Source: an uncultured Pseudomonadota bacterium (lineage in GTDB: Bacteria; Pseudomonadota; Alphaproteobacteria; RF32; CAG-239). Taken from it: 64,000 nucleotides of DNA. Under the pieces are notes generated by a model. The model did not search any database, was not told the DNA's origin, and saw only the letters and a program-made list of their open reading frames with translations. Location: NCBI GenBank assembly GCA_949295915.1, contig CASFNB010000006.1:10541-74540 (forward strand). Direction: 5' to 3'. Made by a program: the position numbers and the translations under genes. Below are positions 3,056 through 36,619 of this stretch, piece after piece (within the stretch, counting starts at the first letter, position 1; each line of letters opens with the position of its first letter).

Positions 3056-3153
3056 TCCCCGATATCCACAAACCTCTATGTAGAATTTAGATTGTATTTA
3101 ATGTTTTTTTTGTTTATAAAATCAGCAGCCAATAATTTAATTGAAAGAAGACC

Positions 3154-8009: not shown

Positions 8010-8138
8010 ACCCTTGCTTTACGCAAATAAATCCACTAAATTATGGGAAATTAAATAGGAATATGTAAGAAAATAAATTTACATACAAAATTGCTCGCCG
8101 CGCGTCGGTTAAACTTTCTTTAATTGACGTGCTGCGCC

Positions 8139-8189
8139 GGAAGTTTTTGACGACGTGTACATTTAAAGGTACACGAGGAGAAAATTTCC
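8139..8189. repeat. Palindromic element copy PE1 (core CGTGTAC-N8-GTACACG flanked by GGAAGTTTTT / AAAATTTCC)
   Basis: Nested inverted repeat immediately upstream of the yidC start. Same family as the copies at 56.5-57.0 kb and 59.8 kb. Confidence 0.7.
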
Positions 8190-8193
8190 AAGC

Positions 8194-9900
8194 ATGACGT
8201 TAATTAAAGGAAGTTTAAAAAAAATGAAAGATGATGTAAAAGGCCTATACCTTGCTGTTATCGCGTCCATAATCGTGATTTTTGTAACCAATTTACTGTT
8301 CCCCAAAGAGCAGATAAAGCAAGCTCAGCCGGCTCCGCAAATTGAAGAAAGCATTGAAAATGACGAAACAAACAAAAATGACACCGTTGTTTTTAATGAA
8401 GCAACACTTGATAAACAAACAGCCTTAAATCAAGACAAACGCATTCAAATTAAAACACCGGCTTTGCTCGGTAGCATTCGCGTTAAAGGCGGTCGTTTTG
8501 ATGAGCTTTACCTTGATAAATATAAACAAACCTTAGATGCCGATAGTGAAGATGTTGAGTTATTTGCGCCTGCCAAAACCGAAAATGCTTATTATGCCGA
8601 TTTTGGTTGGATTTCTATGGATAAAAGCATCCTCTTACCTAACAGCAACACCAACTGGAACGTAAAGGGTAAAGAATTAACACCTGACACGCCGATTGTT
8701 TTGGAATGGAACAACGGACAAGGCATTCGCTTCATTCGCAAAATTTCCGTTGATAAAGACTATATGTTCACATTGGAACAAGCCGTAGAAAACAACTCCG
8801 GCAAACAAATCAGCTTATATCCTTTTGGTTTGATTAAACGCAGCTTTGACCCCAAAAACGCCAATCGTGCCATTATTCATGAAGGCATGACCGGTGTTGT
8901 CGACTCTTCCTTAGAAGAAATTAAATACAACGACTTAGAAAAAGGCGAAAAAGAAGAATATAAAACCAACGGCGGTTGGGCCGGTTTTTCTGACCACTAT
9001 TGGTTCTCAGCTTTTATTTTGGATAAGAACAGTGAAAGCAAAGTCAAATTCAGCAACACCGGCAAAAACAGCTATCAGGTAGACTATGTCGGTGCCGAAC
9101 AAAAAATTGACAACGGTTCGGTCGGCATTGTCGATTTGAAAATGTTTGCCGGAGCTAAAGAAATCAAATTATTGGATAAATACACCAAACAATTTGATAT
9201 TGAAAAATTTGATTTAGCGGTTGATTTTGGTTGGTACTACTTCCTGACCAAACCATTCTTCTATATTTTAGACTTTTTCTACCATATCATCGGCAACATG
9301 GGCTGGGCAATTTTGCTCTTTGCCGCTTTGCTTCGTTTGGTTATGTACCCGATTGCCAGTAAATCTTTTGACAGCATGTCCAAGATGAAAAAGTTGCAAC
9401 CCAAAATCAAAGAATTGCAAGAGCGTTATGGCGACGACAAAATGAAATTGCAACAAGAAACCATGTTGCTCTACCGCAAAGAAAAAATTAATCCGGCAGC
9501 AGGATGTTTACCGATGCTCATCCAAATTCCGGTATTCTTCTCTTTGTACAAAGTTTTGAATATCTCGATTGAGATTCGTCATGCACCGTTCATCGGTTGG
9601 ATTAAAGACTTGTCTGCTCCCGATCCACTGACCATTTCTCGCATTATCCATTTTCCTGTCCCCGGATTTTTGGATATTGGTGTTTGGCCGATTATCATGG
9701 GTATCACCATGTATATTCAACAAAAACTCAATCCGGCGCCGACCAACAAAGATCAAGCCCGCATGTTTATGCTGTTGCCGCTTATCTTCACATTCATGCT
9801 CGGACATTTTGCCGCCGGCTTGGTGATTTACTGGAGCTTTAGCAACCTTTTATCCATCATTCAACAAAAAGCCATCATGCGCAAAAACGGAGTAGACTAA
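8194..9900 (+). CDS. yidC: Membrane protein insertase YidC
   Basis: Large periplasmic domain followed by the conserved C-terminal core ([50 protein letters not shown]). Alternative start at 8224. Confidence 0.95.
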
Positions 9901-10544
9901 TGGAATTTGCCACCCCCGAGTATCAAGAAGATTCCTTAAAAGAAGCCGAAGCTTTTTTCAAACAACCCTGCACCTTTGTACTCGGGGTAGCAAAATTAGA
10001 GCAACTTCCGCTCTCTGATTTGCCGGAAGTAGCTTTTGCCGGACGTTCCAATGTCGGCAAATCCAGCATTATCAATGCCCTTACCGGACAAAAAAGTCTG
10101 GCTAAAACCTCCAACACCCCCGGACGCACGCAACAGCTAAACTATTTTAACTTGAGCGATAAAATCCATATTGTCGACCTCCCCGGTTATGGCTTTGCGC
10201 AAGCACCGGAAAGCATGGTCAAGCAATGGCAAAACCTCATTTTCGCTTATTTGCAAGGTCGTGTAAACTTAAAAAGAGTTTTTGTGTTAATCGATTCGCG
10301 CCACGGGATTAAAAAGGTTGATTTAGAAATTATGGAAATGCTGGATAAAGCCGCCGTAACCTACCAAATTGTTCTGACCAAAACCGATAAAATCAGTGAG
10401 AAAGCTTTGGAAAAAGTTTTGGCAGAAACTCAAAAGACAATCAAAGACCATGCCGCCGCCTATGTCACGGTTTTAGCCACCAGCTCGGAAAAGAAAAGCG
10501 GCTTAAACGAACTGCGTTGTGAAATTCAATCTTTAGCATTGTAA
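9900..10544 (+). CDS. yihA: Ribosome biogenesis GTP-binding protein YihA/EngB
   Basis: G1 motif [15 protein letters not shown]3 DLPGYG, G4 TKTDK. Conserved position after yidC. Confidence 0.9.
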
Positions 10545-12090: not shown

Positions 12091-13125
12091 TTATGCAATT
12101 TTAGATAATTTTGAGGCAGCCGAAGCAATTTGCATAATGGTATAAGAAGCAATCTCTTCCACAGGCATATTTGTTGTTTTGCATTCTTTTTCAGCCTTAA
12201 ACAATAGTTCCAAAACAGACAATACACGTTCTCTCGGCCAAATGGTTACTTGACGCTTAAAACTGGATTCGCGAAAAAAAATAATTTTTGGCACCAACTT
12301 AAAAACTGCTTTATCAAGAGTATCACCTTTTTCCATAAAAGCTTTAACAGTCAAAATTTTGTTAAAATGATAAGAAAGAGAACGAATGATAGAAATTGGC
12401 TCATTTCCTTCACAAACCAATTTTCTAAAAGATTTTAATGCTTTGTCAGTTTGTCCGTTGGCTGCAAAATAACAAACATCATCTCCGCTTGCTGCCGATT
12501 GGTCACTGATGCAAATTTGAATATCATCGGCTGTAACATTTTTCTTATCTCCCATATAGGTAATAAGTTTTTCTATCTCACCGAGATTCGTTTTTCTGTC
12601 ATTAGAAAGGCGAGAACACAAAAGCTGCAAAGCTTCATTATTAATTGTTAATCCGTTTTCAACAAACATGAAGCGCGCCGTTGCAAAAATATCTTCATCT
12701 CTGTCTTCATAACAAGCAATCAAACCCATATCTTCACGCTCTTCCGCCAAAGCAACCAAAGAAGATTTTTTGTTTAATAATGTTGAAGATATAATCACCA
12801 AAGTATCGGAAGGCGTCCCGTCGAACATGATTTTGAGATGTTTGGTCAGATTGTTATCGGCATCTTTAACCACAATCACACGTCTGCCACCCATCAAAGA
12901 CTGACTGGTATATTCGGCAAACAAAGAGCCTATATCAGCCAAAACATCGGCACAATTAAAATAAACCACTGAAAAGGGATCATACAAATCTTTAGAAACG
13001 GTTTGAACAAGTTTTTTAACATATTCATTAACCAAACCGTCATTAGAACCGTAAATAACAAAAGCTTTTAGGGCCAAATCAGGCTTTTTCAAATATTTAT
13101 CTATTTGTGCCTGTTTATATATCAC
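12091..13125 (-). CDS. holA: DNA polymerase III subunit delta
   Basis: Length, the N-terminus (YLKKPDLALKAFVIYGSNDGLV) and position downstream of lptE/leuS. Confidence 0.8.
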   Translation of the reverse strand: MIYKQAQIDKYLKKPDLALKAFVIYGSNDGLVNEYVKKLVQTVSKDLYDPFSVVYFNCADVLADIGSLFAEYTSQSLMGGRRVIVVKDADNNLTKHLKIMFDGTPSDTLVIISSTLLNKKSSLVALAEEREDMGLIACYEDRDEDIFATARFMFVENGLTINNEALQLLCSRLSNDRKTNLGEIEKLITYMGDKKNVTADDIQICISDQSAASGDDVCYFAANGQTDKALKSFRKLVCEGNEPISIIRSLSYHFNKILTVKAFMEKGDTLDKAVFKLVPKIIFFRESSFKRQVTIWPRERVLSVLELLFKAEKECKTTNMPVEEIASYTIMQIASAASKLSKIA

Positions 13126-13653
13126 TACTGGTTTCCTTTCTTAAAACGAGCATGAAAATACGCTCCGATACGAAGAGTTATATCATTGGCAATAATTTTT
13201 GCAGCATCGGTTTGTGTTTTTTTCTTGGCAAAGGTTGTCGAATAAGGATTAGCCAAAATATCATAACTAACATAGGCAATACTATCTCCGAGAAGATTCG
13301 GCACTAAGCAGACGATAATTAACTTTATATCTGACACGTTCACGTGTTGCGGTAATATCATCACGCATGGCTTGTTGCGTAATTTCAATCGGAGCAACGT
13401 CGACAAACAATCGATAAGTCGGATTTTTAGGTGCGCCGAGCGGTGTCAACATATCCAACAAATCATTTCTGAGCTCTTGTCCAAAACGCTCGGCAATGGT
13501 TTGAACCTTAATTTTAGCCATTTCGGCAGAAATGGAAGTATCAAACTCACCGCCAAAATACCACAAGCTTTCTTGTTTTTTTTGCACATATAAAGGCTCA
13601 AAACCGCAAGCAGAAATAAAAAGCACCAAAAACAAAAGCCAACATTTTTTCAT
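13125..13653 (-). pseudogene. lptE: LPS-assembly lipoprotein LptE, split by a 1-nt frameshift (or assembly error)
   Basis: The N-terminal part (MKKCWLLFLVLFISACGFEPLY..., ORF 13282-13707) stops at 13282. The C-terminal part (LGDSIAYVSYDILANPYSTTFAKKKTQTDAAKIIANDITLRIGAYF) continues in another frame (ORF 13125-13406). The junction is near TCTTCTCGG at about 13290-13300. Confidence 0.65.
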
Positions 13654-13771
13654 TATAAAAATCCTCAAAACAAAATTTAAGCCAACTTTAGCATAAATAC
13701 CGCGCAAGGCAACGATTTTTTATTGCCAAAACACATTTATCTGTTTATTTTGAAGAAAGAAAATAATTATC

Positions 13772-14605
13772 ATGAATATATTAACTTTAATTCTTATCAT
13801 TATGAAAACAAAAGAAGAACTTCTGGCTGTTTTACAAAATTTAGGTTTAAGTTTTTGCATCAGCAACCCCATTCAAGAAGGAACATGGGTTTTCAAATTT
13901 GACAAAGCACTGAGCTTTATGCAAAAAGACAGTATTAACACTGAAATTGACTACCACTTTGGTTACATGGTTTCATGGCACAAAAACTGGCTCACGGTCT
14001 ACCCGGAAATTCAGAGTCAAGTTTTGCGCAATTTCAGAGACACTGTAGATAACGTAGGTGAAGCGCATCAAGCCTATTTTAAAACGTTTACCTTCCGCGA
14101 GCAGAAAAATCTATCCCCTAAACAATTTATTATTAGGATAAATTTTGATGCACCCGCTACAAAAAAAATATTAAAGGAAATTTGCTGGAAATTTCAAGAA
14201 AGAAACAATACCTTCTGCAAGGTCTTAACCAACAATGAATTTCTGATTGATTGCGCAGCACAGGTAGACATTGAAGCTTTGAAAAAAGAACAACAAGAGG
14301 CCTTAAAGAAAAAACATTATGCCGACGAATGCGGAAAATTATCGCGAAGATTGGACATTCCTTTTATTAATGTTTTAGCTATGGGAACAGATGAGAAACT
14401 TTTGGAAAGACACTTGGTAACAATGAACCGAGCCGCCGGCTTAATTGCCGCGCAAGACAAGAGCGAAAAGAAACTTCTTTTTTATCAGATTTTTAAAGGC
14501 GATAAATTAAGCAAAGAAAAAGCCATCAAAAGCTTGGGAATTGAAATTGGTAACGCAGATGTTATGCGTATTGATTTTTCGAGTTTGAAAAATGCTTTTA
14601 AGTAG
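13772..14605 (+). CDS. Hypothetical protein, opposite strand, inserted between lptE and leuS
   Basis: Long ORF with a terminator. No motif recognised. Likely start at 13802 (MKTKEEL). Confidence 0.5.
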   Translation: MNILTLILIIMKTKEELLAVLQNLGLSFCISNPIQEGTWVFKFDKALSFMQKDSINTEIDYHFGYMVSWHKNWLTVYPEIQSQVLRNFRDTVDNVGEAHQAYFKTFTFREQKNLSPKQFIIRINFDAPATKKILKEICWKFQERNNTFCKVLTNNEFLIDCAAQVDIEALKKEQQEALKKKHYADECGKLSRRLDIPFINVLAMGTDEKLLERHLVTMNRAAGLIAAQDKSEKKLLFYQIFKGDKLSKEKAIKSLGIEIGNADVMRIDFSSLKNAFK

Positions 14606-19986: not shown

Positions 19987-21129
19987 TTGATGCTTGAAGA
20001 AAATACAAAAACAAGATATAACATGGTTAATATAAACAACGGGGCTTCTACCATGACAAATGAGTTCATTTTAACTTTGGTTACTTTGATTGCGGGAATT
20101 TCTTTCGGCTTTACCGGTTTTTATGTCTACAAACAAAAAGCCCAAACATTATCCTCCGCCTTTTTAAAAAAAGAATTAGCATTTGCCCCAATTTATATCA
20201 GTAGTGTTATTATACTCTCACTTTTATATTTCATCACCCCCAAGGAAGATGACTTTATCCATGATTTTTCTGCCCTGGAACTTTTTGTACCGCTCTTGCT
20301 CGCCGGCATCTGCTATGTACTGACTTTATTTACCCAAACGGCAAAATTTATCAATATTTTTATCATTGCGGCAATAAGCATCTCTGTTTATTTTCTGCCC
20401 CCCGATTTTTTAATGTTTAAAGGCTACCTCTCGTTATGGGCTGACCGCCTTGCCATCATCTTGTTATGGTCTGTTTTTTCTTGTTTTTACTATATTTTGA
20501 ATGGTGTTGACGGTATTTTACCTATTTTCAGCGCCTCCTATCTGATTTGCTTGATTATACTATCCTTATTTGATGCCGCCCCTGCTTTTTACGGCTTGAC
20601 CGGACTGGCACTGTTGTGTATCAACGGCTCTTTTTTGGCATACAACTGGTTTCCCGCCAAAATAACATTAAGCAACAATTCATGCAAAATTTTTGGTTTT
20701 ATGTTAGGAGGTATTATGACATTTGCCGGTTCGGAAAATCTGGCACCATGCTTTGCCATAATATTAACAATTTTTGCATTAGAACTTTTACAAAGCATTT
20801 TCAAAAAACTTTCTTTACGCAACCGCTACGCCGATTTGAACACCAATACAATTTGTTACCAAGCTCATATCAGCGGGCTCACTCCGAACCAAGTTTGTTT
20901 TGCCATATTCAAAGTTCAAATTTTATTTATCATATTAGGATGCTTCCAAGCCTACCTTCCCAATAATTATTCATTGCCGATTGCCTCTTTGTTCTTAGCG
21001 GCATGGTTCTTAAACAAACTCAAAAACTGGGATGAACCGACACAAAGCTTAAAAGAAATCAATCAAGAATTTGTAAGTGATTTACGCCAAAACATAAACG
21101 ATATAAAAAACAGCTTAAAACGAGATTAA
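19987..21129 (+). CDS. Polytopic membrane protein, MraY/WecA (glycosyltransferase family 4)-like
   Basis: About 10 hydrophobic segments and an LNGVDGI motif resembling the DGxDG(L) of polyprenyl-phosphate sugar-phosphate transferases. Likely start at 20053. Confidence 0.45.
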   Translation: MMLEENTKTRYNMVNINNGASTMTNEFILTLVTLIAGISFGFTGFYVYKQKAQTLSSAFLKKELAFAPIYISSVIILSLLYFITPKEDDFIHDFSALELFVPLLLAGICYVLTLFTQTAKFINIFIIAAISISVYFLPPDFLMFKGYLSLWADRLAIILLWSVFSCFYYILNGVDGILPIFSASYLICLIILSLFDAAPAFYGLTGLALLCINGSFLAYNWFPAKITLSNNSCKIFGFMLGGIMTFAGSENLAPCFAIILTIFALELLQSIFKKLSLRNRYADLNTNTICYQAHISGLTPNQVCFAIFKVQILFIILGCFQAYLPNNYSLPIASLFLAAWFLNKLKNWDEPTQSLKEINQEFVSDLRQNINDIKNSLKRD

Positions 21130-22505: not shown

Positions 22506-22970
22506 ATGATTTTTTGTTCCATTATGAACACGCCTTATGGAAACATCTTGCTTGAAGCCGAAAATGATCAATTAATCGGCTGCCGTTTTATTTTTACTTC
22601 CTCATTCAAAAATGACAACCAAGAAACCCCTTTTTTACAAAATGTAAAAAAACAGTTGGAAGAATATTTTTCCGGCATCAGAAAAATTTTTGACATCAAA
22701 ATGGCTCCTACGGGAACGCCTTTTCAACAAAGCGTATGGCAAGCCTTACAAAAAATCCCATACGGACAAACTGCAAGCTACCAAGAAATTGCCAAAAGAA
22801 TTAATAATCCCCAAGCTTCCCGCGCGGTAGGCATGGCCAATAATAAAAACCCCATAGCCATAATCATTCCTTGTCACCGCGTAATCGGAAGCAACGGCAA
22901 GTTAGTTGGTTACGCCGGAGGCTTAAATTTAAAACAACAACTTTTAGAATTAGAAAAAAATAACCTATAA
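22506..22970 (+). CDS. ogt: Methylated-DNA--protein-cysteine methyltransferase
   Basis: Active site IIPCHRVIGSNGKLVGYAGGL and the upstream YGQTASYQEIA helix. Confidence 0.9.
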   Translation: MIFCSIMNTPYGNILLEAENDQLIGCRFIFTSSFKNDNQETPFLQNVKKQLEEYFSGIRKIFDIKMAPTGTPFQQSVWQALQKIPYGQTASYQEIAKRINNPQASRAVGMANNKNPIAIIIPCHRVIGSNGKLVGYAGGLNLKQQLLELEKNNL

Positions 22971-22980
22971 GAGAAAAAAC

Positions 22981-23322
22981 ATGAGACAATTTTATCCCAT
23001 AATTCTTTTAACCATATCAAATATATTCATGACTTTTGCTTGGTATGGGCATTTAAAGTTCAAATCCACGGCATTATGGATTGTCATTTTAGCCAGCTGG
23101 GGTATTGCTTTTTTTGAATATATTTTTTAAGTTCCGGCCAACCGTATCGGACATGAGTTTTTCAGTGCCGCACAACTAAAAATTATGCAAGAAGCCATCA
23201 CCATTATTATCTTTTGCATATTTTCAATTCTGTATTTAAAAGAAGACTTAAAATGGAACTATCTTGTCGGCTTTGCCCTAATTTTACTTGCCGTCTTTTT
23301 TGTGTTTAAGAAATGGGATTAA
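22981..23322 (+). pseudogene. DUF486 (DMT-superfamily) membrane protein with in-frame TAA at codon 50
   Basis: My translation: MRQFYPIILLTISNIFMTFAWYGHLKF...FEYIF-TAA(23128-23130)-VPANRIGHEFFSAAQLKIMQEAIT...KKWD. Homologs have a sense codon at this point in the conserved VPANRIG context. Confidence 0.65.
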
Positions 23323-23455
23323 AATTAAAGCCGATAGGCTTTTGCGACCTACTCTCCTCAACAAAAAAGCCCGCTTTCGCAGGCTTTTTTATGGCGGTGT
23401 AGTAAACTTAAACGGTACCAGGCATACTAAAGCTTCACATTGCCCAAGCCAAATA

Positions 23456-23584
23456 ACAGGGAATCTACAGGGAATTTTATCTTATTTCTCTCCCCTCATA
23501 CTATCATGTTTACCTTGAATTACTTAGCTTATCCAAACATCCCTCCCCAAATTATCAGGGAATTTAAAATAAAAAACAGGGAAA
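23456..23584 (+). repeat. Four direct copies of (A/T)CAGGGAA(T/A) upstream of hamA
   Basis: ACAGGGAAT at 23456 and 23467, TCAGGGAAT at 23555, ACAGGGAAA at 23576, all in non-coding DNA at the left edge of the AT-rich island. Confidence 0.6.
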
Positions 23585-23680
23585 TAGTAAAAAAATAAAC
23601 CCATAGTATAAAAAGTTTTAAATATTGAATATTCCTCAATTTTTAATAAAATCACTAACATAAAAATAAGGAAGGACTGC

Positions 23681-24628
23681 ATGGTTGAATATAAAAAAAC
23701 ATCATATTCAGACGGATTTGGAATTTTTAATAGAATTCACAAAGAAGATTTGGATGGTGTTAATAATAACGTCCTCAATCTCTACATGTTAAATACAGAA
23801 AATAAACTTTTTAATTATGACCAGTTATATGAATATTTGCTTCAAAATATCTGCCAATATGTTTTTGACCGAAGAAAAATAAACGAAACACAAAATGATC
23901 CTATTAAATCAAGAACAATCATTCTTGATGCTCTCAGTCAATTGAGAAAAATAACCTCGGATAAGGATCAAGGTGCTGGTGGAGAATTAGGAGAAATTTT
24001 ATTATATATTTTTTTAGAACAAGATTTAAACGCCCCTAAACTGTTTAGTAAGGTAGAATTGAAAACAAATCCTCAAGATTATGTAAAAGGAGCAGACGGA
24101 ATTCATTTTAAATTCCGAACAGATACGGAAGGAAAGAAAATTCTACAACTAGTGATCGGTGAGGCGAAGATAGATAATGATCTAAACAATGGAATTAATG
24201 CGGCATTTAAATCTATTAATACATATTTATCAAATAATACCCAAGATATTATACTGCTTGATACTCATTTAATGAACCAAATGGTAAATGAAGAAGAAGC
24301 AAACGAACTTAAAGAATATATTTTATCTGTTCCTCGAAAGAAAAAAGAAACCATCTTTGGTATATTTATAGGATATAGCATAAAATATGAAGGAAAAGAA
24401 GATAATAATGACAATTATGATAAAAAAATAATTCAAGAAAATTTGCAACAAGTTATGAATTACAGACAAAAAATAATTGATAAAATTAACGATTATCATG
24501 TTAGTAATTACGAATTTAATTTTTATTTCTTACCTTTTCACAATGCGATGAATGATCGAAAAATTATTATTGATCAACTTACCTCTGGACATCCCCATTT
24601 TTCACGGAAGGAAATTCGTAATGGTTAA
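23681..24628 (+). CDS. hamA: Hachiman defence protein HamA (DUF1837, PD-(D/E)xK-type nuclease)
   Basis: GELGEILLYIFLE motif. GADGIHF ... VIGEAK gives the D...ExK nuclease signature. Overlaps the downstream helicase gene, matching the Hachiman two-gene layout. Confidence 0.75.
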   Translation: MVEYKKTSYSDGFGIFNRIHKEDLDGVNNNVLNLYMLNTENKLFNYDQLYEYLLQNICQYVFDRRKINETQNDPIKSRTIILDALSQLRKITSDKDQGAGGELGEILLYIFLEQDLNAPKLFSKVELKTNPQDYVKGADGIHFKFRTDTEGKKILQLVIGEAKIDNDLNNGINAAFKSINTYLSNNTQDIILLDTHLMNQMVNEEEANELKEYILSVPRKKKETIFGIFIGYSIKYEGKEDNNDNYDKKIIQENLQQVMNYRQKIIDKINDYHVSNYEFNFYFLPFHNAMNDRKIIIDQLTSGHPHFSRKEIRNG

Positions 24629-27224
24629 AAATTTAGCTGATTTTCTCCTTAAAGATATTGCAGAAGATGCTAAATTAAAACAAAGTTTTGCTTATCTCTT
24701 GACAACATATCTAAATTATTTAACCGGCCATGGAGAGATTCAATATAATGATAAATTTCAGTTATTATTGCAATATGCTGATTTATTATCTCTATCAAAT
24801 ATAGAACAACACCAAAATATAGCTCAGCAAATTGTAATTCTATTATCACTGCTTTTTCCTCAAAAAAACATTGTAAACATCGTCAAAGAAAATATTTATA
24901 AAAACGTTTCAAATTTTGCATCAATAGATTTATTATTAAAAAATAATAAATTAGCAAAAATTAATAATGAATTTATGCATAATGTAATGTATACTATGCA
25001 TCGTATTGAAAACAATATTCCCGATTCCGATAAAAGCTTTTTTGATGCACAAAAAACAATATTATCCTCTTTGGAAACAAACCAGTATTATAGCTTTTCA
25101 GCTCCAACATCAATGGGAAAAACCTTTGTATCATTGAGTTTTATTAGGAATATGTTAAAACAAAATTCTTGTGATAATTTTGCCATTATCGTTCCAACTA
25201 GAGCATTGCTATCAGAAATTGCAAATAAAATTATTAATGATTTTAAAGATTATCTCGGAAATAATCGTCACAAAGTGGTTACCACAACCGCAGTTGTACA
25301 GGAAGGAGAAAAATTTATAGCGGTTTTAACTCCTGAACGTTTATATTATTCTATACTAAAGAAACCTGAAGTTCAATTCAAATACATATTTATTGATGAA
25401 GCACATAAAATTTCTGGAAACGACAAAAGAAGTATTATTTATTATAAAATACTGGATATGTTCAAAACAGATAATAACATTCATATATATTTTTCTTCAC
25501 CTATAATTCCTAATCCAGATATCTACTTAGAACTTACAAATTTTTATTCAAACAGCAACTCTTCTGGAAAGGCCTTTGTTTTTTCACCTGTAATACAAAA
25601 TAAGATTTATCTTAACTTTCTAGAACAAAAAATTCAGATATATAACAATATAACAAATGAAGTTCTCAATGGAACGTCATTTCCTCACAATATTACTGAT
25701 AAAATGCAAGCTCTGTTATTTTTTGGCAAAAATAAATGTAATTTGATTTATGTTTCATCGGCAAATAAAGCTATTAAATATGCTTTAGAACTAGCGAATA
25801 CTGTAGAAACATATAATTTATTTCCTCAAACAGATGAGGTGAAAAAAGAATTAGAAAAAGCATCAAAACAAATAGAACAAAAAATACATCAAGACTATTA
25901 CTTAGCTAAATTAATTCGACAAGGTATAGCTTATCATATAGGAGCTCTTCCTGGAGAAGTAAGAACACAAATAGAAGATCTTTTAAAAAAAGGATATTTA
26001 CGGTATTGTTTCTGCACAAGTACCTTACTAGAGGGTGTTAATGTTCCTGTTGATAATCTCTTCATATTTGACAGTAAAAAAGGTAGAAGCGAAATGTCAA
26101 CAATTGACGCTTTCAATTTGATAGGAAGAGCTGGTCGAGTAACCTTAAATGAATATGGTAATGCCTTTATAATTATTGAAGATAATAGAACTCAGCAATA
26201 TTTTAATAAGGTTTTACTAAATCCTCTTCCTCATCAAGATTTGTTACCTCAAAAGACCTTACAAAAAAAACATAAAAAACATATTGTTTCTGTTCTATTA
26301 GATGGAAAAACAAACCTCCTAGAAGAAGGAGAAAAATATTCTTCTCACGGATTTAACGAAACAACATATGAATACGCCACAAAATGTCTAAATATGCTTT
26401 TACAAGATATATGCACTAAAAATAAAAGTTATATAGTTAAAGATTTTGAAAAAGATGAAATTCTATCACCTCAAAATATCATTGACATAAGAAACAAATT
26501 TTCAAATTTCCAACAAGATGATAACGATATAAACTTATCTGCTCTACAAAAAAATAGTTTATATGATGCTGTTTTAAATAAAAATATAAATTACCCTAAT
26601 TCATTTGATTATCAATCATGTCTAAGTTTTTTAAAGGAACTGTCAGAAATATTTCAATGGCAAATATATGAAAGAACTTCATTAGGTAGAGGAGAAAGTC
26701 TAAAATATTATACTGTTATTTTAACACAATGGATGCAGGGAAAAGGTTTACATGAGATAATTAGGAGTGCAATTAATTATTACAGAGAACACTCATGCCA
26801 ATTACAAGTCTATGAACCCACTTATAGACTCGTAGATTATGATGATTCCTTAGAACACAAAAACATTATAATTAACGAAACAATGAAAAATATAGAAGAA
26901 ATTATTAATTATAAATTCTCAATGTACTTTTTAAGATTATCAGAAACGCTAATAAAATTACAAGGTGAAAGTGCGTTAATTAATGATTGGTACGAATATG
27001 TAGAGTATGGAACCAATAATCATTTAGTTATAACATTACAAAAATATGGATTTTTAAGAGAGGAGGCAATTTCTCTCATTAATCCTCAGTATATAAAATA
27101 TATTAATTTAGTCGAAAATCATATACAAATTGATATTGATCTCATAAATGTTGTTCCTCTTGAACTTAAAAACTCTATACAAACAGTAATGATTAACTAC
27201 CCTGAAATTTTTTATATTGAATAA
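24621..27224 (+). CDS. hamB: Hachiman defence helicase HamB (SF2 DExH helicase)
   Basis: Motif I APTSMGKTFV, motif II FIDEAHKI, motif V LLEGVNVP, motif VI LIGRAGR, and a long C-terminal domain. Start set at ATG 24621, overlapping the hamA stop by 8 nt (ORF-track start is 24552). Confidence 0.8.
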   Translation: MVKNLADFLLKDIAEDAKLKQSFAYLLTTYLNYLTGHGEIQYNDKFQLLLQYADLLSLSNIEQHQNIAQQIVILLSLLFPQKNIVNIVKENIYKNVSNFASIDLLLKNNKLAKINNEFMHNVMYTMHRIENNIPDSDKSFFDAQKTILSSLETNQYYSFSAPTSMGKTFVSLSFIRNMLKQNSCDNFAIIVPTRALLSEIANKIINDFKDYLGNNRHKVVTTTAVVQEGEKFIAVLTPERLYYSILKKPEVQFKYIFIDEAHKISGNDKRSIIYYKILDMFKTDNNIHIYFSSPIIPNPDIYLELTNFYSNSNSSGKAFVFSPVIQNKIYLNFLEQKIQIYNNITNEVLNGTSFPHNITDKMQALLFFGKNKCNLIYVSSANKAIKYALELANTVETYNLFPQTDEVKKELEKASKQIEQKIHQDYYLAKLIRQGIAYHIGALPGEVRTQIEDLLKKGYLRYCFCTSTLLEGVNVPVDNLFIFDSKKGRSEMSTIDAFNLIGRAGRVTLNEYGNAFIIIEDNRTQQYFNKVLLNPLPHQDLLPQKTLQKKHKKHIVSVLLDGKTNLLEEGEKYSSHGFNETTYEYATKCLNMLLQDICTKNKSYIVKDFEKDEILSPQNIIDIRNKFSNFQQDDNDINLSALQKNSLYDAVLNKNINYPNSFDYQSCLSFLKELSEIFQWQIYERTSLGRGESLKYYTVILTQWMQGKGLHEIIRSAINYYREHSCQLQVYEPTYRLVDYDDSLEHKNIIINETMKNIEEIINYKFSMYFLRLSETLIKLQGESALINDWYEYVEYGTNNHLVITLQKYGFLREEAISLINPQYIKYINLVENHIQIDIDLINVVPLELKNSIQTVMINYPEIFYIE

Positions 27225-27252
27225 AAAAGGTTTCGCTATTTCAAATATTTAT

Positions 27253-27747
27253 TTAAAAAATGTCAATAACACCGTTCCTTTTTAATTCTATTAATAATTT
27301 ATCCAGAGTTTGTCCTGCCCAAATTATCAATTTAATATTATTTACAGATGGAACTTTTGAACCATGAAAGAAGTTACAGCGTATTTTATAAACGACTTTC
27401 AAATAATAATAAAGATTATTTTTGTTGCTATTAAAACGTGCTATAATTTTTTCTTTCCCATAAAGTCCTAATCTGCTGCCTTGTTCATCCTTGTAAGGGA
27501 TCATTTTAAATGATTGCACAAAACCATTTTTCAAAGCATTATAAACCTTTTGAGCCGCTTTATTTTTAGATAATTGCACCGATCCTAAAACATCTTTCAT
27601 ATGATATGTTTTAGAATACCAACTATTATATTGCATCCAAGTAAACATAAAATGAAGGACTTCTTGTTGTTCTTGTGGTAACAAATCTCCTCTCATCCAA
27701 AACGTCCAATCGGCTACTGTTAACTTCTCATTTTTCCTTGTTACCAT
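27253..27747 (-). CDS. HEPN-domain protein (Rx4H), candidate stand-alone abortive-infection RNase
   Basis: YKIRCNFFHGSK contains the R-x4-H HEPN catalytic motif in an all-helical ~160 aa protein. Convergent with hamB. Confidence 0.55.
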   Translation of the reverse strand: MVTRKNEKLTVADWTFWMRGDLLPQEQQEVLHFMFTWMQYNSWYSKTYHMKDVLGSVQLSKNKAAQKVYNALKNGFVQSFKMIPYKDEQGSRLGLYGKEKIIARFNSNKNNLYYYLKVVYKIRCNFFHGSKVPSVNNIKLIIWAGQTLDKLLIELKRNGVIDIF

Positions 27748-27755
27748 ATCTCAAA

Positions 27756-28019
27756 TTACTCTCCAATGACTTTCAGCAAATCATCATATGTTTCGATGAT
27801 TTTATATTTAATGGTATCAGAGCTGATGGCAGCGAAATGTTTTCTGGCACAAGCTGTTTTTGATTTTTCAACACCTCTTAATTCCAGCTCTAAATTTTCC
27901 ATATTTCCCTTAGTTTTGTTCGCTTTTATTAAAACCTTATCATAGGGCTTAATTTTCAGCCCGAACTTTTCAATTTTAACTCCTACTGTTTTCTTAGCCC
28001 TTATGGCTCCTTTTAACGG
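27756..28019 (-). pseudogene. Remnant resembling the C-terminal domain of restriction-enzyme/helicase R subunits
   Basis: An open frame with no credible start reads ...KIKPYDKVLIKANKTKGNMENLELELRGVEKSKTACARKHFAAISSDTIKYKIIETYDDL. This follows the pattern (x)E(x)KG...K..AA..F...n...Y.i seen at such C-termini. The only ATG ORF inside is 48 codons (27756-27902). Confidence 0.3.
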
Positions 28020-28616
28020 TTACATATTTTTGATGTGGATGGTTAGGTTTGTCTGGGTACATTAACTCCAAACTTCCTTTTTTTATTAAAATATTTAAAA
28101 TGCTTTCTTTGAAATATTTTCTATCTTTATACCCCATAAACTCCATTATATCCAACGCCTTTTTAGGTACCTGACAAAAAGTAAGAATTTTCTCTTCTAT
28201 TGTACCATCAACCGCATTTCTAGCTTGGGGGGGGTAACTTGAGGGGTAACTTGGGGAGTGTCCTTAGGGGTATTGGGAGCAAACTGACGGAAAAAGTCAA
28301 TTTTCCAGTCAACTTTAAACACTTCGCTGTCTTCCAATACCGGTTCATGACCGGCATAGGACTTGGCATACTTGGTTATCTTTCGCACTCCGGAACCTAA
28401 TTCATCGGCCAAACCAATCTCTTTAAAGAAGTTCGCCAAAATAGGATTTTTCGGGTGCGGTATATTTATATCAGGGTTAATATTGCCATGGATAAACGGT
28501 TTATTAGCATTTTCTATGGTTATTTTGTCTGCCTCAATAATCAAACGGGCGTAATAACGATAGGTAAATTCTCTGTGAATCAGCATATTGACCGCAATTT
28601 CTCTAAATAAAATCAT
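27994..28616 (-). pseudogene. Fragment of an AlbA_2/HATPase_c_4-type (RecG-like) ATP-binding regulator, 5'-truncated and frameshifted
   Basis: REIAVNMLIHREF...NPILANFFKEIGLADELGSGVRKI...TPQVTPQVTP stops at 28197. The expected wHTH tail continues in another frame (IEEKILTFCQVPKKALDIMEFMGYKDRKYFKESILNILIKKGSLELMYPDKPNHPHQKY). The frame change coincides with a G8 run at 28227-28234. Confidence 0.6.
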
Positions 28617-29097
28617 TTATCAGAAGGATCGCCTGACATTCTTTTTTAATACCGATCCGATAACCCTCTCAGCCTATAGTGGCGATTCGCTGAACCAAAA
28701 CGATAATCCACTGGAGTTTATAGCAGATAATGTCAACAACCAAATCATCTATGAAAAACAGGTCGTTATCAACCGCGGACTGTCAAGCAATGTCTATAAC
28801 GCCGGAAAAGTTGGACTGATGAGTATCAATGATAACAATCGACTCATTGTCCGTGCCTTAGCTTATACTTGGAAATTTAAGAAACTCTACGAAAAGGGAC
28901 TAAGCACCGATGACATAGCCAAACAAGAAAAAATGTCGAAACGAACCATCTACAAATACCTAAATCTTGCCTACCTCTCACCAAGAATAGTTAATCAACT
29001 TCTCGATGGAACCTTAAACATTAACCTTCAAACACTTTTTGAAATCGCCTCTAAAAACCTGAGTTTTGACGAGCAGGAAAAGATGTTAGCTATTTAA
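28588..29097 (+). pseudogene. C-terminal fragment of a serine-recombinase-type protein (mobile element remnant)
   Basis: LIVRALAYTWKFKKLYEKGLSTDDIAKQEKMSKRTIYKYLNLAYLSPRIVNQLLDG resembles the HTH tail of resolvase/invertase-family recombinases. No catalytic N-terminal domain is present. Confidence 0.4.
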
Positions 29098-29153
29098 TAG
29101 CCTAATTTACATTAAAAATTTTTCAGAATATCATTCATTATGGCAAAAAATTT

Positions 29154-29798
29154 GTGGATAAGAAAATGAGTGAGATTCAAAAACAATACTATCAACAACT
29201 TCAAAACCAGCTAAAGATTATGTGCAGTGCAACTATTCACGCACTAATTGATACCTATATGCTTATGTTTCCTGAGGCATACAAACAGGAAAACAAAAAT
29301 ACCTTTATGTTTCGATATACTTTTTATGCTTTTCAGCAAAGAGCTATGATTTCTGTTAGAAAGTTAATTGAACCTTCAAGTAAAAACAAAATTACAATTG
29401 AATCTATTGTTAAATTAGCTACGAAACCAGATTTTTCACTTTTGTCTGAAAAAGAGAAAACTGCATTAAAAGCTGATTATGATGAGCTATTCAACTCAGA
29501 AGAAACAAAAAGGATAAAAGAATTTCGAGATGCTTTGTGTCATAATCTTTTAGATGGAGATAAAGCAATGTATTATTATAATGATTTTATGTTTATTGTT
29601 AGCGGATCAATTCATATTTTAGAACAACTATACCTGATTGTTCTATCATCGCTCCCAACTTTTTTTGTTGAAGCTCGAAATATTGCAGAATATTTAGCAG
29701 CTAATTATTGGCAAGCTTTTGATAAAGCCGCAAAAAATTCTAACAATAATCATGATATAAATACTAAATTACAGAAGCTTCTAGATGGTGAATTTTAA
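29154..29798 (+). CDS. Second HEPN-like protein (Rx4H; AbiU2-like candidate)
   Basis: KEFRDALCHNLLDG contains R-x4-H. Helical protein of about 210 aa next to tRNA-Ser at the island edge. Confidence 0.45.
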   Translation: MDKKMSEIQKQYYQQLQNQLKIMCSATIHALIDTYMLMFPEAYKQENKNTFMFRYTFYAFQQRAMISVRKLIEPSSKNKITIESIVKLATKPDFSLLSEKEKTALKADYDELFNSEETKRIKEFRDALCHNLLDGDKAMYYYNDFMFIVSGSIHILEQLYLIVLSSLPTFFVEARNIAEYLAANYWQAFDKAAKNSNNNHDINTKLQKLLDGEF

Positions 29799-29972
29799 GG
29801 AATGAAGTGACTCTGCAAAAATCGGCAATGTATGTAACTGCCGGAAATTTTGCGTTTTTTGATTTTAAACGAGCTTACCATAGTCAATTTAGCAAAGTCA
29901 AGCGCCAGCAAAGCCCGCAATTCCGCAGGATGCAAAAAAAGACGCTATATCTAAGCGTCCTTTCAACTAAAA

Positions 29973-30064
29973 TGGCGGAGAGATAGGGATTCGAACCCTA
30001 GGTACCCGTTACCGAGCACAATTGATTTCGAGTCAACCGCATTCGACCACTCTGCCATCTCTCC
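29973..30064 (-). tRNA. tRNA-Ser (anticodon CGA)
   Basis: Acceptor GGAGAGA/TCTCTCC, anticodon loop CTCGAAA, long variable arm, T arm TAGGG-TTCGAAT-CCCTA, encoded CCA. Confidence 0.9.
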
Positions 30065-30137
30065 ATTTCTTTTGATACTAATAAATTTTATTCTCTCTTT
30101 TGGCAAGAACTATTTTTAAATTTCGCACCCAAACAAA

Positions 30138-30719
30138 CTACTCTCGCCCGTCATCTTCCAACCCGCGACGACGTAATCTTTCTATCTGAGCGGCTTTTTC
30201 TTTTTCATCTATGCCTTCTTCATCACTATGAACAATTCTTTGGCTCACGGGATGCCATTTTTTTTCTTCCTTCAATATCTGTTTAACCTCAGAAAAAGTT
30301 TGCTTAAAAGAGCGCGCCTCTTCTTGTTTGGCATCTCGCCCTTCTTCAAGATGTTCATTTGCTTTATCTCGTTCTGTTTCAGAAACCTGCAAAGGCATAA
30401 TTAAAATTCCGACAACATGATTAAGTAACTGTTCTTCAAAACTAAATCGACGATTTAAGCGGATTCTGACTTCTTCCTTATTATCATATCCAAAAACTTT
30501 AGACGGCAGTAAAGTAACCAAATCGTCGCAACGTTCAAAAACCAACAACCCGCGCACCAAACATAATACTCTCTCATTGGTATCTTGACATACAAATTCA
30601 ATAACATCGTTAAGTTTGATTTTCTGATGTTCTTCATCAAATAGCTTAACTTCAATGCGTTTTGTTCCATTAACAATTTTATCAAAAGAAAAACGCATTA
30701 GATACATTGTATGTTTCAT
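30138..30719 (-). CDS. ASCH-domain protein with a long charged C-terminal tail
   Basis: The N-terminal ~100 aa (FDKIVNGTKRIEVKLFDEEHQKIKLNDVIEF) fit the ASCH beta-barrel pattern. The tail is E/K/R-rich. Confidence 0.45.
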   Translation of the reverse strand: MKHTMYLMRFSFDKIVNGTKRIEVKLFDEEHQKIKLNDVIEFVCQDTNERVLCLVRGLLVFERCDDLVTLLPSKVFGYDNKEEVRIRLNRRFSFEEQLLNHVVGILIMPLQVSETERDKANEHLEEGRDAKQEEARSFKQTFSEVKQILKEEKKWHPVSQRIVHSDEEGIDEKEKAAQIERLRRRGLEDDGRE

Positions 30720-33848: not shown

Positions 33849-34619
33849 ATGCAGCTTTCCGTTTATATCATTACATTGAATGAAGAAACCAGAATCGAAA
33901 CCACAATCAAGCAAGCAAAAAAAGTTGCCGATGAAATCGTTGTGGTTGATAGTGGTTCTAAAGACAAAACCATCGATATTGCCAAAAAACTGGGTTGCAA
34001 AGTCATTCATCATGATTGGGAAAGCTATTGCAAACAAAAATCCTTCGCCGAAAAACAATGCTTCAACGATTGGGTTTTAATGCTTGATGCCGATGAAGTT
34101 TTGTCAGAAGAATTGGTAGCAGAATTAAAAGCATGGAAAAAAACAACCCCTGAGTTTAACGCCTATAAACTCAAAATCTGCAATATGTTTCCTAATGATA
34201 AAAAGCCGCGCCGCTTTACACATACTTTTAACGTTGTGCGTTTATACAATCGTCAATTTGCCCACATGCCGGAAGATTTAATGAACAAAGACCGCATAAA
34301 AGTTGATGAAGGTCAAAAAATCGGACAATTCAAAAACGTGATACACCACTTCTGCATTTTGAGTTTGGAACAAGCTACGGCAAAATATAACATTCACAGT
34401 TCAGAATTGGTTAAAACCTTAGCTAAAAACAAGCGCAAAATTTCTAAATTGCGCATTTTCACCGAATTTCCGCGCCAATTTCTGCATTACTACTTTGGCA
34501 AAAGATATTGTTTGCTTGGTACCGAAGGCTATATTCAAGCCTTGGTTTTGGCCAACTTTCGCTTTTTGAAAATTGCCAAATATTATGAATATATGCAAAA
34601 AGAAAAGCCGAAAGCATAA
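33849..34619 (+). CDS. Glycosyltransferase family 2
   Basis: LSVYIITLNEE...VVVDSGSKDKT...LDADE (DxD) pattern of GT2 enzymes. Confidence 0.8.
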   Translation: MQLSVYIITLNEETRIETTIKQAKKVADEIVVVDSGSKDKTIDIAKKLGCKVIHHDWESYCKQKSFAEKQCFNDWVLMLDADEVLSEELVAELKAWKKTTPEFNAYKLKICNMFPNDKKPRRFTHTFNVVRLYNRQFAHMPEDLMNKDRIKVDEGQKIGQFKNVIHHFCILSLEQATAKYNIHSSELVKTLAKNKRKISKLRIFTEFPRQFLHYYFGKRYCLLGTEGYIQALVLANFRFLKIAKYYEYMQKEKPKA

Positions 34620-34655
34620 CATCTGCTTTCGGCTTTTTAATCTAAGGTTGATTGG

Positions 34656-36317
<1,662 letters not shown>

Positions 36318-36328
36318 TCACAAATCGA

Positions 36329-36619
36329 TTATTCTGTAATGATAGCTAAGATTTCAGGTTCTTTAATAATGAGGCGGTCTTCGCCTTTAACCTTGATTTC
36401 GGTACCGGACCATTTACCGAATAGAACCTTATCGCCGACTTTAACGGTCATCGGCACGAGTTTTCCGTCAGGAGTAACCATTCCGGGACCTATTGCTTCG
36501 ACAATACCTTCGCTGGGTTTTTCTTTAGCGGTATCGGGAATGATGATTCCGCCGGCTGTTTTAGTATTTTCATCGAGTCTTCTGATGAGGACTCTGTCTT
36601 GTAACGGTTTAATCGCCAT
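36329..36619 (-). CDS. groS: Co-chaperonin GroES
   Basis: [33 protein letters not shown]. Immediately upstream of groEL. Confidence 0.97.

Follow-up and report, generated by a model that had tools for sequence, protein, structure and literature searches.

The stretch of DNA analysed here (the window, 64 kb) belongs to an alphaproteobacterial lineage of the human gut and holds, between a decayed DUF486 gene and a tRNA-Ser(CGA) gene, an island whose features are collected in Table 1. A preliminary description of this DNA had listed hamA and hamB, a recombinase tail and two other gene fragments among its contents, and each of these could be confirmed. The loci used for comparison (designated L and a number) all come from metagenome assemblies, and the relatives of the lineage include CAG:495 and Candidatus Scatocola genomes.

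Table 1. Features of the island and its borders (positions in the window).
Feature	Position	Strand	Basis or remark
DUF486/DMT_6 pseudogene, host gene outside the island	22981-23322	+	Pfam DMT_6 on called fragment
Displaced native downstream flank of tRNA-Ser, hairpin 'terminator A'	23348-23390	.	Comparison with L005
tRNA-distal core copy ATGGCGG	23391-23397	.	Four-way alignment; same in L003, L013, L053, L118-L122
Element left end and hamA upstream region	23398-23680	.	
hamA, Hachiman DUF1837 nuclease effector	23681-24628	+	PADLOC, Pfam, PDB
hamB, Hachiman Ski2-like sensor helicase, 867 aa	24621-27224	+	PADLOC, PDB
p164, orphan, 164 aa	27253-27747	-	Motif YLKVVYKIRCNFFHGSK (Rx4H), invariant
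Type III restriction-modification remnant, Mod::Res stub	27756-27998	-	L003 comparison, frame translation
AlbA_2/HATPase_c_4/Fic-like_C gene remnant	27994-28616	-	Pfam and L105 comparison
Large serine recombinase C-terminus, ~164 aa, with HTH_7	28588-29097	+	tblastn against L115
Deletion junction AATAAAAT	28606-28613	.	Three-way comparison of window, L105 and L115
p214, orphan, variable cargo slot between recombinase and att site	29154-29798	+	
Element right end including hairpin 'terminator B', now downstream of tRNA-Ser	29803-29972	.	
tRNA-proximal core copy, last 6-7 nt of tRNA-Ser	29973-29979		ATGGCGG
tRNA-Ser(CGA)	29973-30064	-	ARAGORN; Rfam tRNA 58.9 bits; 100% identical to L005 tRNA

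The island had been described as AT-rich with respect to its flanks, and sliding GC, tetranucleotide usage and GC3 all deviate in agreement with this. GC amounts to 0.303 in the region 23330-29972 and to 0.373 in the window, the 6.6-kb frame from 23251 has the lowest GC of all such frames (0.301, against a mean of 0.371 and an sd of 0.028), and the 500-nt GC profile drops to 0.25-0.30 across 23500-27500. The tetranucleotide distance exceeds the median by more than 2 sd in every 2-kb frame starting between 23001 and 26501, and the segment 23398-29972 is both the most AT-rich and the most tetranucleotide-deviant part of the 64 kb. At the level of single genes, GC3 is 0.20 in hamA, 0.17 in hamB, 0.205 in p214 and 0.255 in p164, against 0.39 +/- 0.057 in the 24 long background ORFs taken as reference. 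The AT-richness is nevertheless uneven, and the part that contains the HATPase fragment and the recombinase tail (28000-29100) is host-like, with a GC of 0.36-0.41.

The DUF486 gene had been called a pseudogene, and comparison of its translation with 13 relatives locates the lesion in a single nonsense change (CAA>TAA, 23128-23130) at codon 50, which reads CAA (Q) in 10 relatives; the same stop is present in the independent assemblies L001 and L002. Since the L003 island has an intact copy beside it, and since the breaks in L005 and L024 arose independently, the decay of the gene looks unrelated to the island.

Target site and junctions of the island

The placement of the island on the 3' side of a minus-strand tRNA-Ser, as first described, is borne out by the mapping of the tRNA, and the junctions become apparent by comparison with L005, which represents the empty site. 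There, positions 14324-14460 read terminator A - ATGGCGG - tRNA-Ser, with terminator A directly against the tRNA; an unrelated pair of genes is inserted between DUF486 and the tRNA flank, away from the core. Read on the opposite strand, ATGGCGG is CCGCCA(T), the CCA end of tRNA-Ser(CGA). In a four-way alignment, the distal junction of the window consists of native flank, ATGGCGG and element left end, and the proximal junction of element right end, ATGGCGG and the tRNA-Ser beginning at 29973. The native flank of the tRNA has thus moved to the far end of the island, where window positions 23348-23397 match L005 14324-14374 at 92%, and the 7-bp core is all that the two junctions have in common. 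A repeat finder run over 22900-30200 did not pick up the tRNA-derived repeat, given a core of no more than 7 bp; a repeat of this length is trivial by chance, so that its weight comes entirely from the comparative alignment.

Both ends recur in other genomes. The left end is common to L003 (to 23582, 83%), L053 (23390-23488, 89%) and L118 (23391-23432 and from 23452), and four direct CAGGGAA repeats lie inside it at 23457-23583, out of six CAGGGAA sites in the 64 kb. The right end matches the tRNA-proximal ends of L023, L035, L098 and L107-L115 at 78-92% identity. The attB form of the site would read terminator A-ATGGCGG-tRNA and the attP form terminator B-ATGGCGG-TGTAGTAAAC. At the distal junction of L013, L120 and L122, the flank on the host side is 80-85% like the element right end over 65 bp, which makes the attP-like junctions ambiguous, and in these species the attB/attP picture is less clean than the simple model. 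The L013 junction may be attP or a tandem array; in L120, however, a host gene is followed immediately by this flank, which in these species might then be no more than the native flank of the tRNA. An Rfam scan at relaxed thresholds found the tRNA alone, promoter and terminator scans gave results at chance level, and the 15 IMG/VR contigs retrieved with ATGGCGGTGTAGTAAAC included none with extended similarity to the island and were counted as chance.

Working genes and gene debris

By its sequence, the window carries an intact Hachiman type I system. A PADLOC search of the island matched both components, HamA as HamA1 (E 5.5e-100) and HamB as HamB1 (E 1.7e-272). HamA also matches Pfam PF08878 over the full profile (positions 1-230 of 230, E 8.2e-47) and PDB 9wh1_A (E 5.6e-11), and has D139 and a G-E161-A-K163 motif, equated by motif with the ExK of the ECOR31 protein (E138/K140). 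HamB aligns with 9wh1_B over residues 7-863 (E 1.7e-72), with Walker A GKT at 166-168 and DEAH at 259-262; its gene overlaps the hamA stop by 8 nt, and the gene call in L001 is likewise 867 aa long. Against the copies in L118, dN/dS is 0.08 for hamA and 0.13 for hamB, values that show purifying selection on the cassette, and nucleotide identity reaches 94.4% over 3,774 bp. The dS of hamAB (0.13-0.18) compares with 0.6-0.78 for core genes against the closest relative, and transfer of hamAB between hosts is supported. We infer that this cassette is the working part of the island.

In the E. coli ECOR31 system, HamB surveys DNA and the HamA nuclease kills by abortive infection, and the catalytic ExK and DExH residues are required for defence (PMC12278908). 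By homology with it, the HamB of the window would survey DNA; a 3' ssDNA end or infection-born DNA damage would enter HamB, ATP hydrolysis would activate or release HamA, and this nuclease would degrade DNA indiscriminately, resulting in abortive infection (PMC12278908). The window shares with the ECOR31 and 9wh1 systems the two overlapping genes, a HamA with DUF1837 and D...ExK, and, as in 9wh1_B, a full-length Ski2-like HamB that includes Walker A, DEAH and the N-terminal helical region. It differs from characterised Hachiman systems in the high AT content of hamAB (GC 0.27) and in its presence, within an uncultured gut alphaproteobacterium, as cargo on an element with a serine recombinase, and from some Hachiman subfamilies, which possess accessory toxin-antitoxin or trypsin-MBL modules (PMC13064477; bioRxiv 10.1101/2025.09.03.673762), in having neither.

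The description of the two orphan genes as "two HEPN proteins" holds for p214 only transitively, through homologues that match HEPN_AbiU2, and neither p214 nor p164 matches a HEPN profile directly. The p214 family comprises 18 representative clusters among 1.84 billion proteins, and R125 and H130 (Rx4H) are invariant in its alignment. Three of ten family members match PF18734 (HEPN_AbiU2, best E 9e-6), p214 itself matching neither this nor another HEPN profile. The AF2 model of p214 is all-helical (mean pLDDT 84), and a Foldseek search of it against the PDB gave nothing below E 0.3, with weak HepT matches at E 0.6-1.3. The invariant Rx4H and the predicted all-helical fold are like those of AbiU2-like HEPN proteins (PF18734), whereas the tiny size of the family, the absence of a profile match for p214 itself and the lack of a significant PDB neighbour set it apart. 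We regard p214 as a candidate for a divergent AbiU2-like HEPN protein, which probably acts as a separate, single-gene abortive-infection RNase of HEPN type (AbiU2-like).

The p164 family is smaller still, with only 5 clusters among 5.8 billion proteins, and R123-x4-H128 is invariant in the 4 sequences aligned. p164 has no match in Pfam, PADLOC or NCBIfam and none to a HEPN profile; a PDB profile search returned a weak match to the HEPN region of ApeA (E 0.92), and the AF2 model (mean pLDDT 49) is too poor for a structure search. Sequence searches of both proteins against the PDB gave nothing significant, and hhalign found the two families unrelated. p164 may be a candidate HEPN RNase and maybe another abortive-infection RNase. 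It was also considered as a third Hachiman gene and rejected as such, given that homology of the window with Hachiman-bearing elements ends at the hamB stop codon and that a 40% homologue of p164 resides in an unrelated element without Hachiman.

The remaining genes are debris. In the type III restriction-modification remnant, the N-terminal ~30 codons of Mod are joined to the C-terminal 48 codons of Res, and the start codon is gone (ATG>AGG). L003 has the intact system (Res 1016 aa, Mod 675 aa), with a Res tail that matches window positions 27755-27916 and a segment (20838-20965) that matches 27931-28058, and L105 has an 81-aa Mod::Res fusion ORF. The AlbA_2/HATPase remnant (Pfam HATPase_c_4, E 4e-9; Fic-like_C, E 2.5e-9) is missing ~290 codons at its 5' end and has a frameshift between its two retained domains; the intact gene, of 487 aa, is found in L105 at 94% DNA identity. 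The truncated end of this regulator gene is joined to the recombinase tail at a deletion junction that lies inside an imperfect 22-bp microhomology.

In the recombinase tail (Pfam HTH_7, E 1.5e-5), residues 6-74 correspond in tblastn to L115 9786-9992 (85.5%), the end of a 450-aa Resolvase+Recombinase gene, and residues 74-167 to the next L115 ORF, of 95 aa (87%). The L115 gene, the sole near-full copy seen, has a 1-nt frameshift before its HTH tail, which may reflect either a true lesion or a fault of the assembly. The loss of the integrase, as proposed in the preliminary description, is evident in that the catalytic Resolvase/Recombinase part has been deleted from the window, which keeps the C-terminal tail and encodes no full recombinase. 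Homologue searches with the tail returned almost only proteins of 54-170 aa, and tblastn against plasmids only two weak, unannotated matches. The tail was also considered as an independent small HTH gene, a reading rejected on the grounds that the tail in L115 continues the Resolvase+Recombinase ORF and that the window ORF is in frame there. By this homology, the recombinase of the island is a large serine recombinase, where a tRNA island would usually suggest a tyrosine integrase, and the microhomology-associated deletion that truncated it has left the island immobile.

Intact relatives and the origin of the island

Intact relatives of the island are estimated to be ~15 kb long. This length and their gene map derive from overlapping loci, L118 and L115, joined via a 5.4-kb overlap at 97% identity, and the right half of a Hachiman-bearing intact element was not seen on one contig. 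The order is left end, (AlbA_2/HATPase gene), cargo, five genes including an EEP-family protein, HTH_3, TerL (phrog_38, E 5.5e-98), DUF5681, ParB/methylase, DUF2924, recombinase, slot gene and right end; no portal, capsid or tail gene is recognisable in these ~15 kb, five ORFs of which have no PHROG match. None of these conserved core genes is left in the window. L118 and L120 share 99.97% identity over 10,944 bp, with unrelated flanks that have a GC of 0.48, and an element of this identity follows ATGGCGG in three host contexts that are unrelated to one another. The L115 core is 97% identical to that of L118, with different cargo. Far from carrying the same genes in host-like composition, the closest relative, L003, has other cargo at this place, and L005 has none. 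L003 contains at the same junction an MmcB-like gene, a Beta protein with ImmA and the type III system, L053 a CBASS (phospholipase E 1e-93, cyclase E 3.5e-111, E2 E 5e-78), L107 a retron (RT_VI, E 1e-76) and L098 AbiH; the cargo slot of relatives includes AbiH, retron, Ymh and others, a Mrr-type restriction enzyme with methylase is another system at the tRNA-Ser site, and many lineages (L023, L113, L124) keep only small remnants.

The earlier inference of a degraded integrative element with partly retained cargo stood up in each part when set against these relatives, with hamAB intact and under purifying selection, and the type III and AlbA_2/HATPase genes reduced to debris. Hence, the segment 23398-29972 very probably derives, by internal deletion and loss of mobility, from a phage-related integrative element with a large serine recombinase. 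In uncultured gut Alphaproteobacteria, the parent element would have used this recombinase to insert into tRNA-Ser(CGA) at its CCA end, and the copy in the window would have brought as cargo the hamAB cassette, which still shares 94% identity with the copies that intact elements have. Thereafter, a deletion would have collapsed the type III system into the Mod::Res stub, the AlbA_2/HATPase gene would have acquired a frameshift, and another deletion would have taken place between this gene and the recombinase gene at a short microhomology.

Part of the evidence could also be accommodated without any site-specific integration, if the gap between DUF486 and tRNA-Ser were simply permissive and cassettes were exchanged there, once DNA had been taken up, by homologous recombination across its conserved flanks. 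Between the shared segments 23398-23582 and 27755-27916, the window has hamAB and p164 where L003 has four other genes; in the interval bounded by the common recombinase tail and the common right end, p214 takes the place of a 143-aa gene in L035; L005 has its unrelated insert off the core, and many lineages have nothing but small remnants. Exchange of this kind leaves unexplained, however, the displaced native flank and core at the distal junction, the recombinase tail, and the near-identical element behind ATGGCGG in three unrelated hosts, and we consider it very improbable as the sole process; homologous exchange probably took place on top of integration, not instead of it. Still harder to credit is the notion that the AT-richness reflects the gene-specific composition of ancestral host genes (e.g. 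through relaxed selection or function) and not a foreign origin. The neighbouring ASCH and nitroreductase genes are also lowish in GC3 (0.28) and part of the island has host-like GC, but the data already contradict this reading: the hamAB cassette retains a GC of 0.275, at 94% identity, in hosts with a GC of 0.48, its dS is several-fold below that of core genes between much closer hosts, and it is missing from the two closest relatives.

The nature of the parent leaves more room for debate. TerL, the ParB-methylase, the repressor-like HTH_3, DUF2924 and the large serine recombinase are all typical prophage genes, and the five genes without PHROG match could include divergent structural proteins, as would be expected if the island were the remnant of an ordinary temperate prophage and its ~15-kb relatives decayed prophages that keep their terminase. 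We find this unlikely, since portal, capsid and tail genes go unrecognised, no IMG/VR contig gives an extended match to the element end, and several hosts share one short gene order at 97-99.97% identity, which points to a currently transmissible unit of that size and not to independent decay. A tentative possibility, to which we would not yet commit ourselves, is that the parent belongs to an undescribed family of phage satellites or satellite-like integrative elements of ~15 kb in uncultured gut Alphaproteobacteria, with TerL, no capsid genes that can be recognised, a large serine recombinase for integration at the CCA end of tRNA-Ser and two defence hotspots, and that p214 and p164, which occupy such positions here, are new effectors. 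The scan of viral contigs, with its chance matches, identified no helper phage. The element family may be undescribed.

Relation to known elements and significance

Large serine recombinases of the phiC31/Bxb1 type are integrases of temperate phages and integrative elements. The recombinase of this family resembles them in its Resolvase and Recombinase domains, in the very short identity at the junctions and in its DUF2924 partner, and differs in its C-terminal HTH_7 tail, with no zinc-ribbon detected; of this protein, the window has the tail only. Defence hotspots are carried by prophages of P2-like and satellites of P4-like type (PMC9122126; PMC13586616), and in E. coli mobile elements that have degraded serve as defence islands (PMC10121019). 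As in these cases, unrelated defence systems replace one another at fixed positions of a conserved backbone, one hotspot adjoins the integrase and the att site, and frequent decay leads to immobile islands at the integration site. In contrast to them, the elements described here rely on a large serine recombinase and not on a tyrosine integrase, reside in a different host clade and target the very CCA end of tRNA-Ser with only a 7-bp common core. Their backbone is composed of TerL, DUF5681 and ParB-methylase, as opposed to the Sid, Psu and primase of P4. The island is an ordinary kind of defence island, the origin of which is here precisely traceable.

For the window itself, the analysis provides the limits of the island (23398-29972), its live genes (hamAB and probably p214 and p164 too), its debris and the cause of its immobility. 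We know of no cultured phage-host system for this human-gut alphaproteobacterial lineage. More generally, the defence repertoire of the lineage turns over at one tRNA-Ser site, where Hachiman, CBASS, type III restriction-modification, a Mrr-type enzyme with methylase, retron and AbiH systems are found, and the element, with copies at 99.97% identity in different host backgrounds, indicates the vehicle. The position next to tRNA-Ser is therefore a handle for the mining of new defence genes, and the candidate serine recombinase, with its 7-bp target core, a possible tool for genome engineering. Were the tentative satellite reading to be true, p214 (18 clusters) and p164 (5 clusters) would be new single-gene anti-phage effectors.

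Junctions, limits and composition of the island

The 455-aa TPR protein encoded in the flank of the island has hundreds of homologues, and 80 loci were taken from uncultured gut Alphaproteobacteria represented by species-level genomes, some recorded under the titles Proteobacteria bacterium CAG:495 and Candidatus Scatocola; their synteny was mapped with tblastn and blastn. The closest relative, locus L003 (TPR 96%), remains collinear with the window as far as 23582, beyond which it carries an MmcB-like nuclease, a Beta protein with an ImmA peptidase, and a complete type III restriction-modification system (Res, 1016 aa; Mod, 675 aa). Locus L005 (TPR 88%) has a 100% identical tRNA-Ser followed, as in the window, by ASCH, and no island at this tRNA in the synteny comparison. 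The same site thus holds different genes in the closest relative and no island in L005, in keeping with the preliminary description of the region as an integrated element.

In L005, the hairpin of the native tRNA-Ser downstream flank (terminator A) is followed by the 7-bp core ATGGCGG and the tRNA body (alignment A2). The window has the same terminator A and core at 23348-23397, directly after DUF486, and then runs on into TGTAGTAAAC..., a sequence found too in L003, L013 and L053; its tRNA-side junction reads terminator B (the hairpin of the element right end), core and tRNA body. As read from these alignments, the pattern is the one that site-specific insertion leaves behind, here at the final 6-7 nt of the tRNA, which read CCGCCA on its own strand, and the island is therefore delimited to 23398-29972. 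The element left end recurs in L003, L013, L023, L033, L053, L113 and L118-L122, and its right end (29803-29972) in L023, L035, L098 and L107-L115. The core repeat is absent from the output of the repeat finder; a 7-bp repeat is meaningless alone, and this one carries weight because relatives were compared.

Features of the island and its tRNA
Feature	Position	Strand	Details
hamA	23681-24628		PADLOC E 5.5e-100; PF08878 E 8e-47
hamB	24621-27224		PADLOC E 1.7e-272
p164	27253-27747	minus	orphan protein
Recombinase tail ORF	28588-29097		169 aa
p214	29154-29798	plus	orphan protein
tRNA-Ser(CGA)	29973-30064	minus	

The distal host-side flank in L013 (15154-15253), L120 (5956-6055) and L122 (5968-6067) resembles terminator B (80-85% over 65 bp), thereby giving attP-like sequences; the native tRNA flank may resemble the element's sequence there, or the remnant of an earlier element may persist. 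In L098 (11430-11816), the right end and core precede GGCGGTGAGATAGGGATT, similar to a fragment of a tRNA 3' end, and then roughly 100 nt that are not tRNA. Two copies of this unit lie in tandem, and intact tRNA-Ser was not found before the contig end, which suggests that additional elements or tandem remnants are stacked at one site. The homologous tRNA of L107 (13091-13181), whose surroundings align to window 29803-30091 at 78%, is called Ser(GGA), not Ser(CGA), by ARAGORN. Four of the six CAGGGAA sites on both strands of the 64 kb are direct same-strand repeats within 127 bp (23457-23583), kept in the left ends of L003, L118 and L053 (the first two only in L053), and may be bound by a regulator or by an accessory factor of the recombinase.

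The AT-richness initially noted is borne out. GC content is 0.303 in 23330-29972 versus 0.373 for the window, the lowest-GC 6.6-kb frame of which starts at 23251 (0.301; frame mean 0.371, sd 0.028); in a 500-nt profile, values of 0.25-0.30 lie between 23500 and 27500. Strand-symmetric tetranucleotide distance exceeds the median plus 2 sd in all 2-kb frames starting at 23001-26501, and GC3 is 0.20 in hamA, 0.17 in hamB, 0.205 in p214 and 0.255 in p164, against 0.39 +/- 0.057 in 24 long ORFs elsewhere in the window. The island is uneven, the GC of 28000-29100 being host-like. One further frame lies above the tetranucleotide cut-off (34501-36500); it is GC-rich (0.43-0.47) and contains a long minus-strand ORF (34659-36305), probably groEL (Cpn60) by synteny with L113 and L115.

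The decayed core gene reported at the island edge is confirmed: codon 50 of DUF486 is changed from CAA to TAA in the window and in two other assemblies. Its decay looks independent of the island, the gene being intact in ten relatives, among them L003, where an island adjoins it. DUF486/DMT_6 carries a 1-nt frameshift in L005 (11845-12190), for which MAG assembly error is an alternative explanation, and a different nonsense codon, at position 21, in L024 (11371-11715). Together with the nonsense codon in the window, these separate inactivations suggest that DUF486 is dispensable in the clade. L005 also bears a two-gene insert (12165-14289) between DUF486 and the native tRNA flank, away from the att core, encoding a 326-aa protein without assignment and a 409-aa MBL-fold/RMMBL nuclease-like protein; PADLOC gave no match for either, and the two could be an unrecognised defence pair.

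A recombinase tail and its parent element

Besides hamAB and the two orphans, the island holds three gene fragments. Homologues of the 169-aa ORF are nearly all small HTH_7 proteins, but an independent HTH gene is ruled out by locus L115. There, the end of a 450-aa Resolvase+Recombinase gene matches residues 6-74 of the window ORF (85.5%), and a 95-aa ORF following a 1-nt frameshift matches residues 74-167 (87%), both parts sharing one frame in the window; this identifies the window ORF as the C-terminal third of a large serine recombinase. Its catalytic domains are missing, in line with the preliminary view that the integrase had been lost. The L115 gene, the only near-complete copy found, is itself divided by that frameshift (9985-10005) into catalytic part and HTH tail. 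Such tails, left beside tRNA-Ser, account for many 54-170-aa proteins in the databases, and the tail with its slot gene (the variable cargo position between recombinase and att site) is therefore the longest-lasting remnant of the element. At 28606-28613, an imperfect 22-bp microhomology joins the broken recombinase to a truncated AlbA_2/HATPase_c_4/Fic-like_C gene. The metagenome contig L105, 94% identical to window 27106-28613, keeps a complete 487-aa copy of this gene, after which come an 81-aa Mod::Res fusion ORF and a p164 homologue; by comparison, the window fusion ORF lacks its ATG and the HATPase gene is frameshifted.

Loci L118-L123 contain hamA cluster members at 90% identity or above, and in these loci the core and left end are followed by an AlbA_2/HATPase gene, hamA, hamB, five genes of no known family bar one EEP, an HTH_3 gene, a large terminase (phrog_38, E 5.5e-98), DUF5681 and a ParB-methylase. 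L115 shares 5.4 kb with this map at 97% identity and extends it by DUF2924, the recombinase, a slot gene and the right end. The joined map spans about 15 kb, in which no capsid, portal or tail gene is recognisable. L118 and L120 share 99.97% identity across 10,944 bp within mutually unrelated host flanks (GC 0.48), and the element has therefore probably moved very recently. Left-end cargo comprises Hachiman (L118-L123 and window), an Mrr-type enzyme with a methylase (L115), CBASS (L053), and the type III restriction-modification system and others (L003); the slot is occupied by p214 in the window, by a type VI retron in L107, by AbiH in L098 and by a Ymh-family protein in L113. The parent is read as a capsid-less, terminase-bearing element with two cargo hotspots, probably mobile and possibly a satellite, circulating among uncultured gut Alphaproteobacteria.

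Hachiman and two orphan proteins

The hamA and hamB genes recognised at the outset are substantiated by PADLOC and Pfam profiles, and they overlap by 8 nt. Both proteins align to the solved Hachiman complex 9wh1, HamB over its full length; HamA retains D139 and E161-x-K163, and HamB retains GKT and DEAH, the counterparts of which are needed for defence in the ECOR31 system (PMC12278908). Hachiman would be the working part of the island, with a mechanism carried over from that characterised homologous system. Identity between window 23452-27216 and the L118 cassette is 94.4%, with dS of 0.13-0.18 versus 0.6-0.78 for window core genes against the closest relative, which shows horizontal acquisition of the cassette. 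The dN/dS ratios (hamA, 0.08; hamB, 0.13) show ongoing purifying selection.

Of the two HEPN proteins initially proposed, p214 stands as a candidate and p164 as a mere possibility. Relatives of p214 number only 18 representatives among 1.84 billion proteins, with R125 and H130 invariant. AF2 predicts an all-helical fold with confidence (pLDDT 84); Foldseek returned nothing significant with this model, the weak matches being to HepT toxins. The HEPN_AbiU2 profile is matched by three of ten family members (best E 9e-6), but not by p214 itself, a candidate divergent AbiU2-like HEPN. For p164, which forms five clusters among 5.8 billion proteins with an invariant KIRCNFFHG motif, profile searches gave no support and the AF2 model was too poor to use. 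It lies outside the Hachiman cassette, since homology to L118 stops at the hamB stop, and a 40% homologue sits in an unrelated element. That element (L100/L101, around 8001-8507) also encodes two large serine recombinases, an AAA_14/DUF4143 ATPase, a 217-aa protein without assignment and a PIN_10 protein; the trio of p164-like, 217-aa and PIN_10 proteins was seen repeatedly on several contigs. Window p164 and its L105 homologue (2614-3114) share 78% protein identity (dN/dS 0.47, dS 0.28) within flanks 94-100% identical. The differences cluster in the N-terminal two-thirds, the C-terminal 60 aa or so being identical, and reflect local rapid divergence or recombination.

The original observation and its reading as a degraded integrative element are both essentially right, and the island is of an already known kind, a defence island arising from decay of an integrated mobile element. 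Beyond that reading, the analysis adds an integrase of the serine recombinase type that would target the CCA end of tRNA-Ser, a putative capsid-less parent with a terminase, and, in cargo positions, two very rare orphan proteins.
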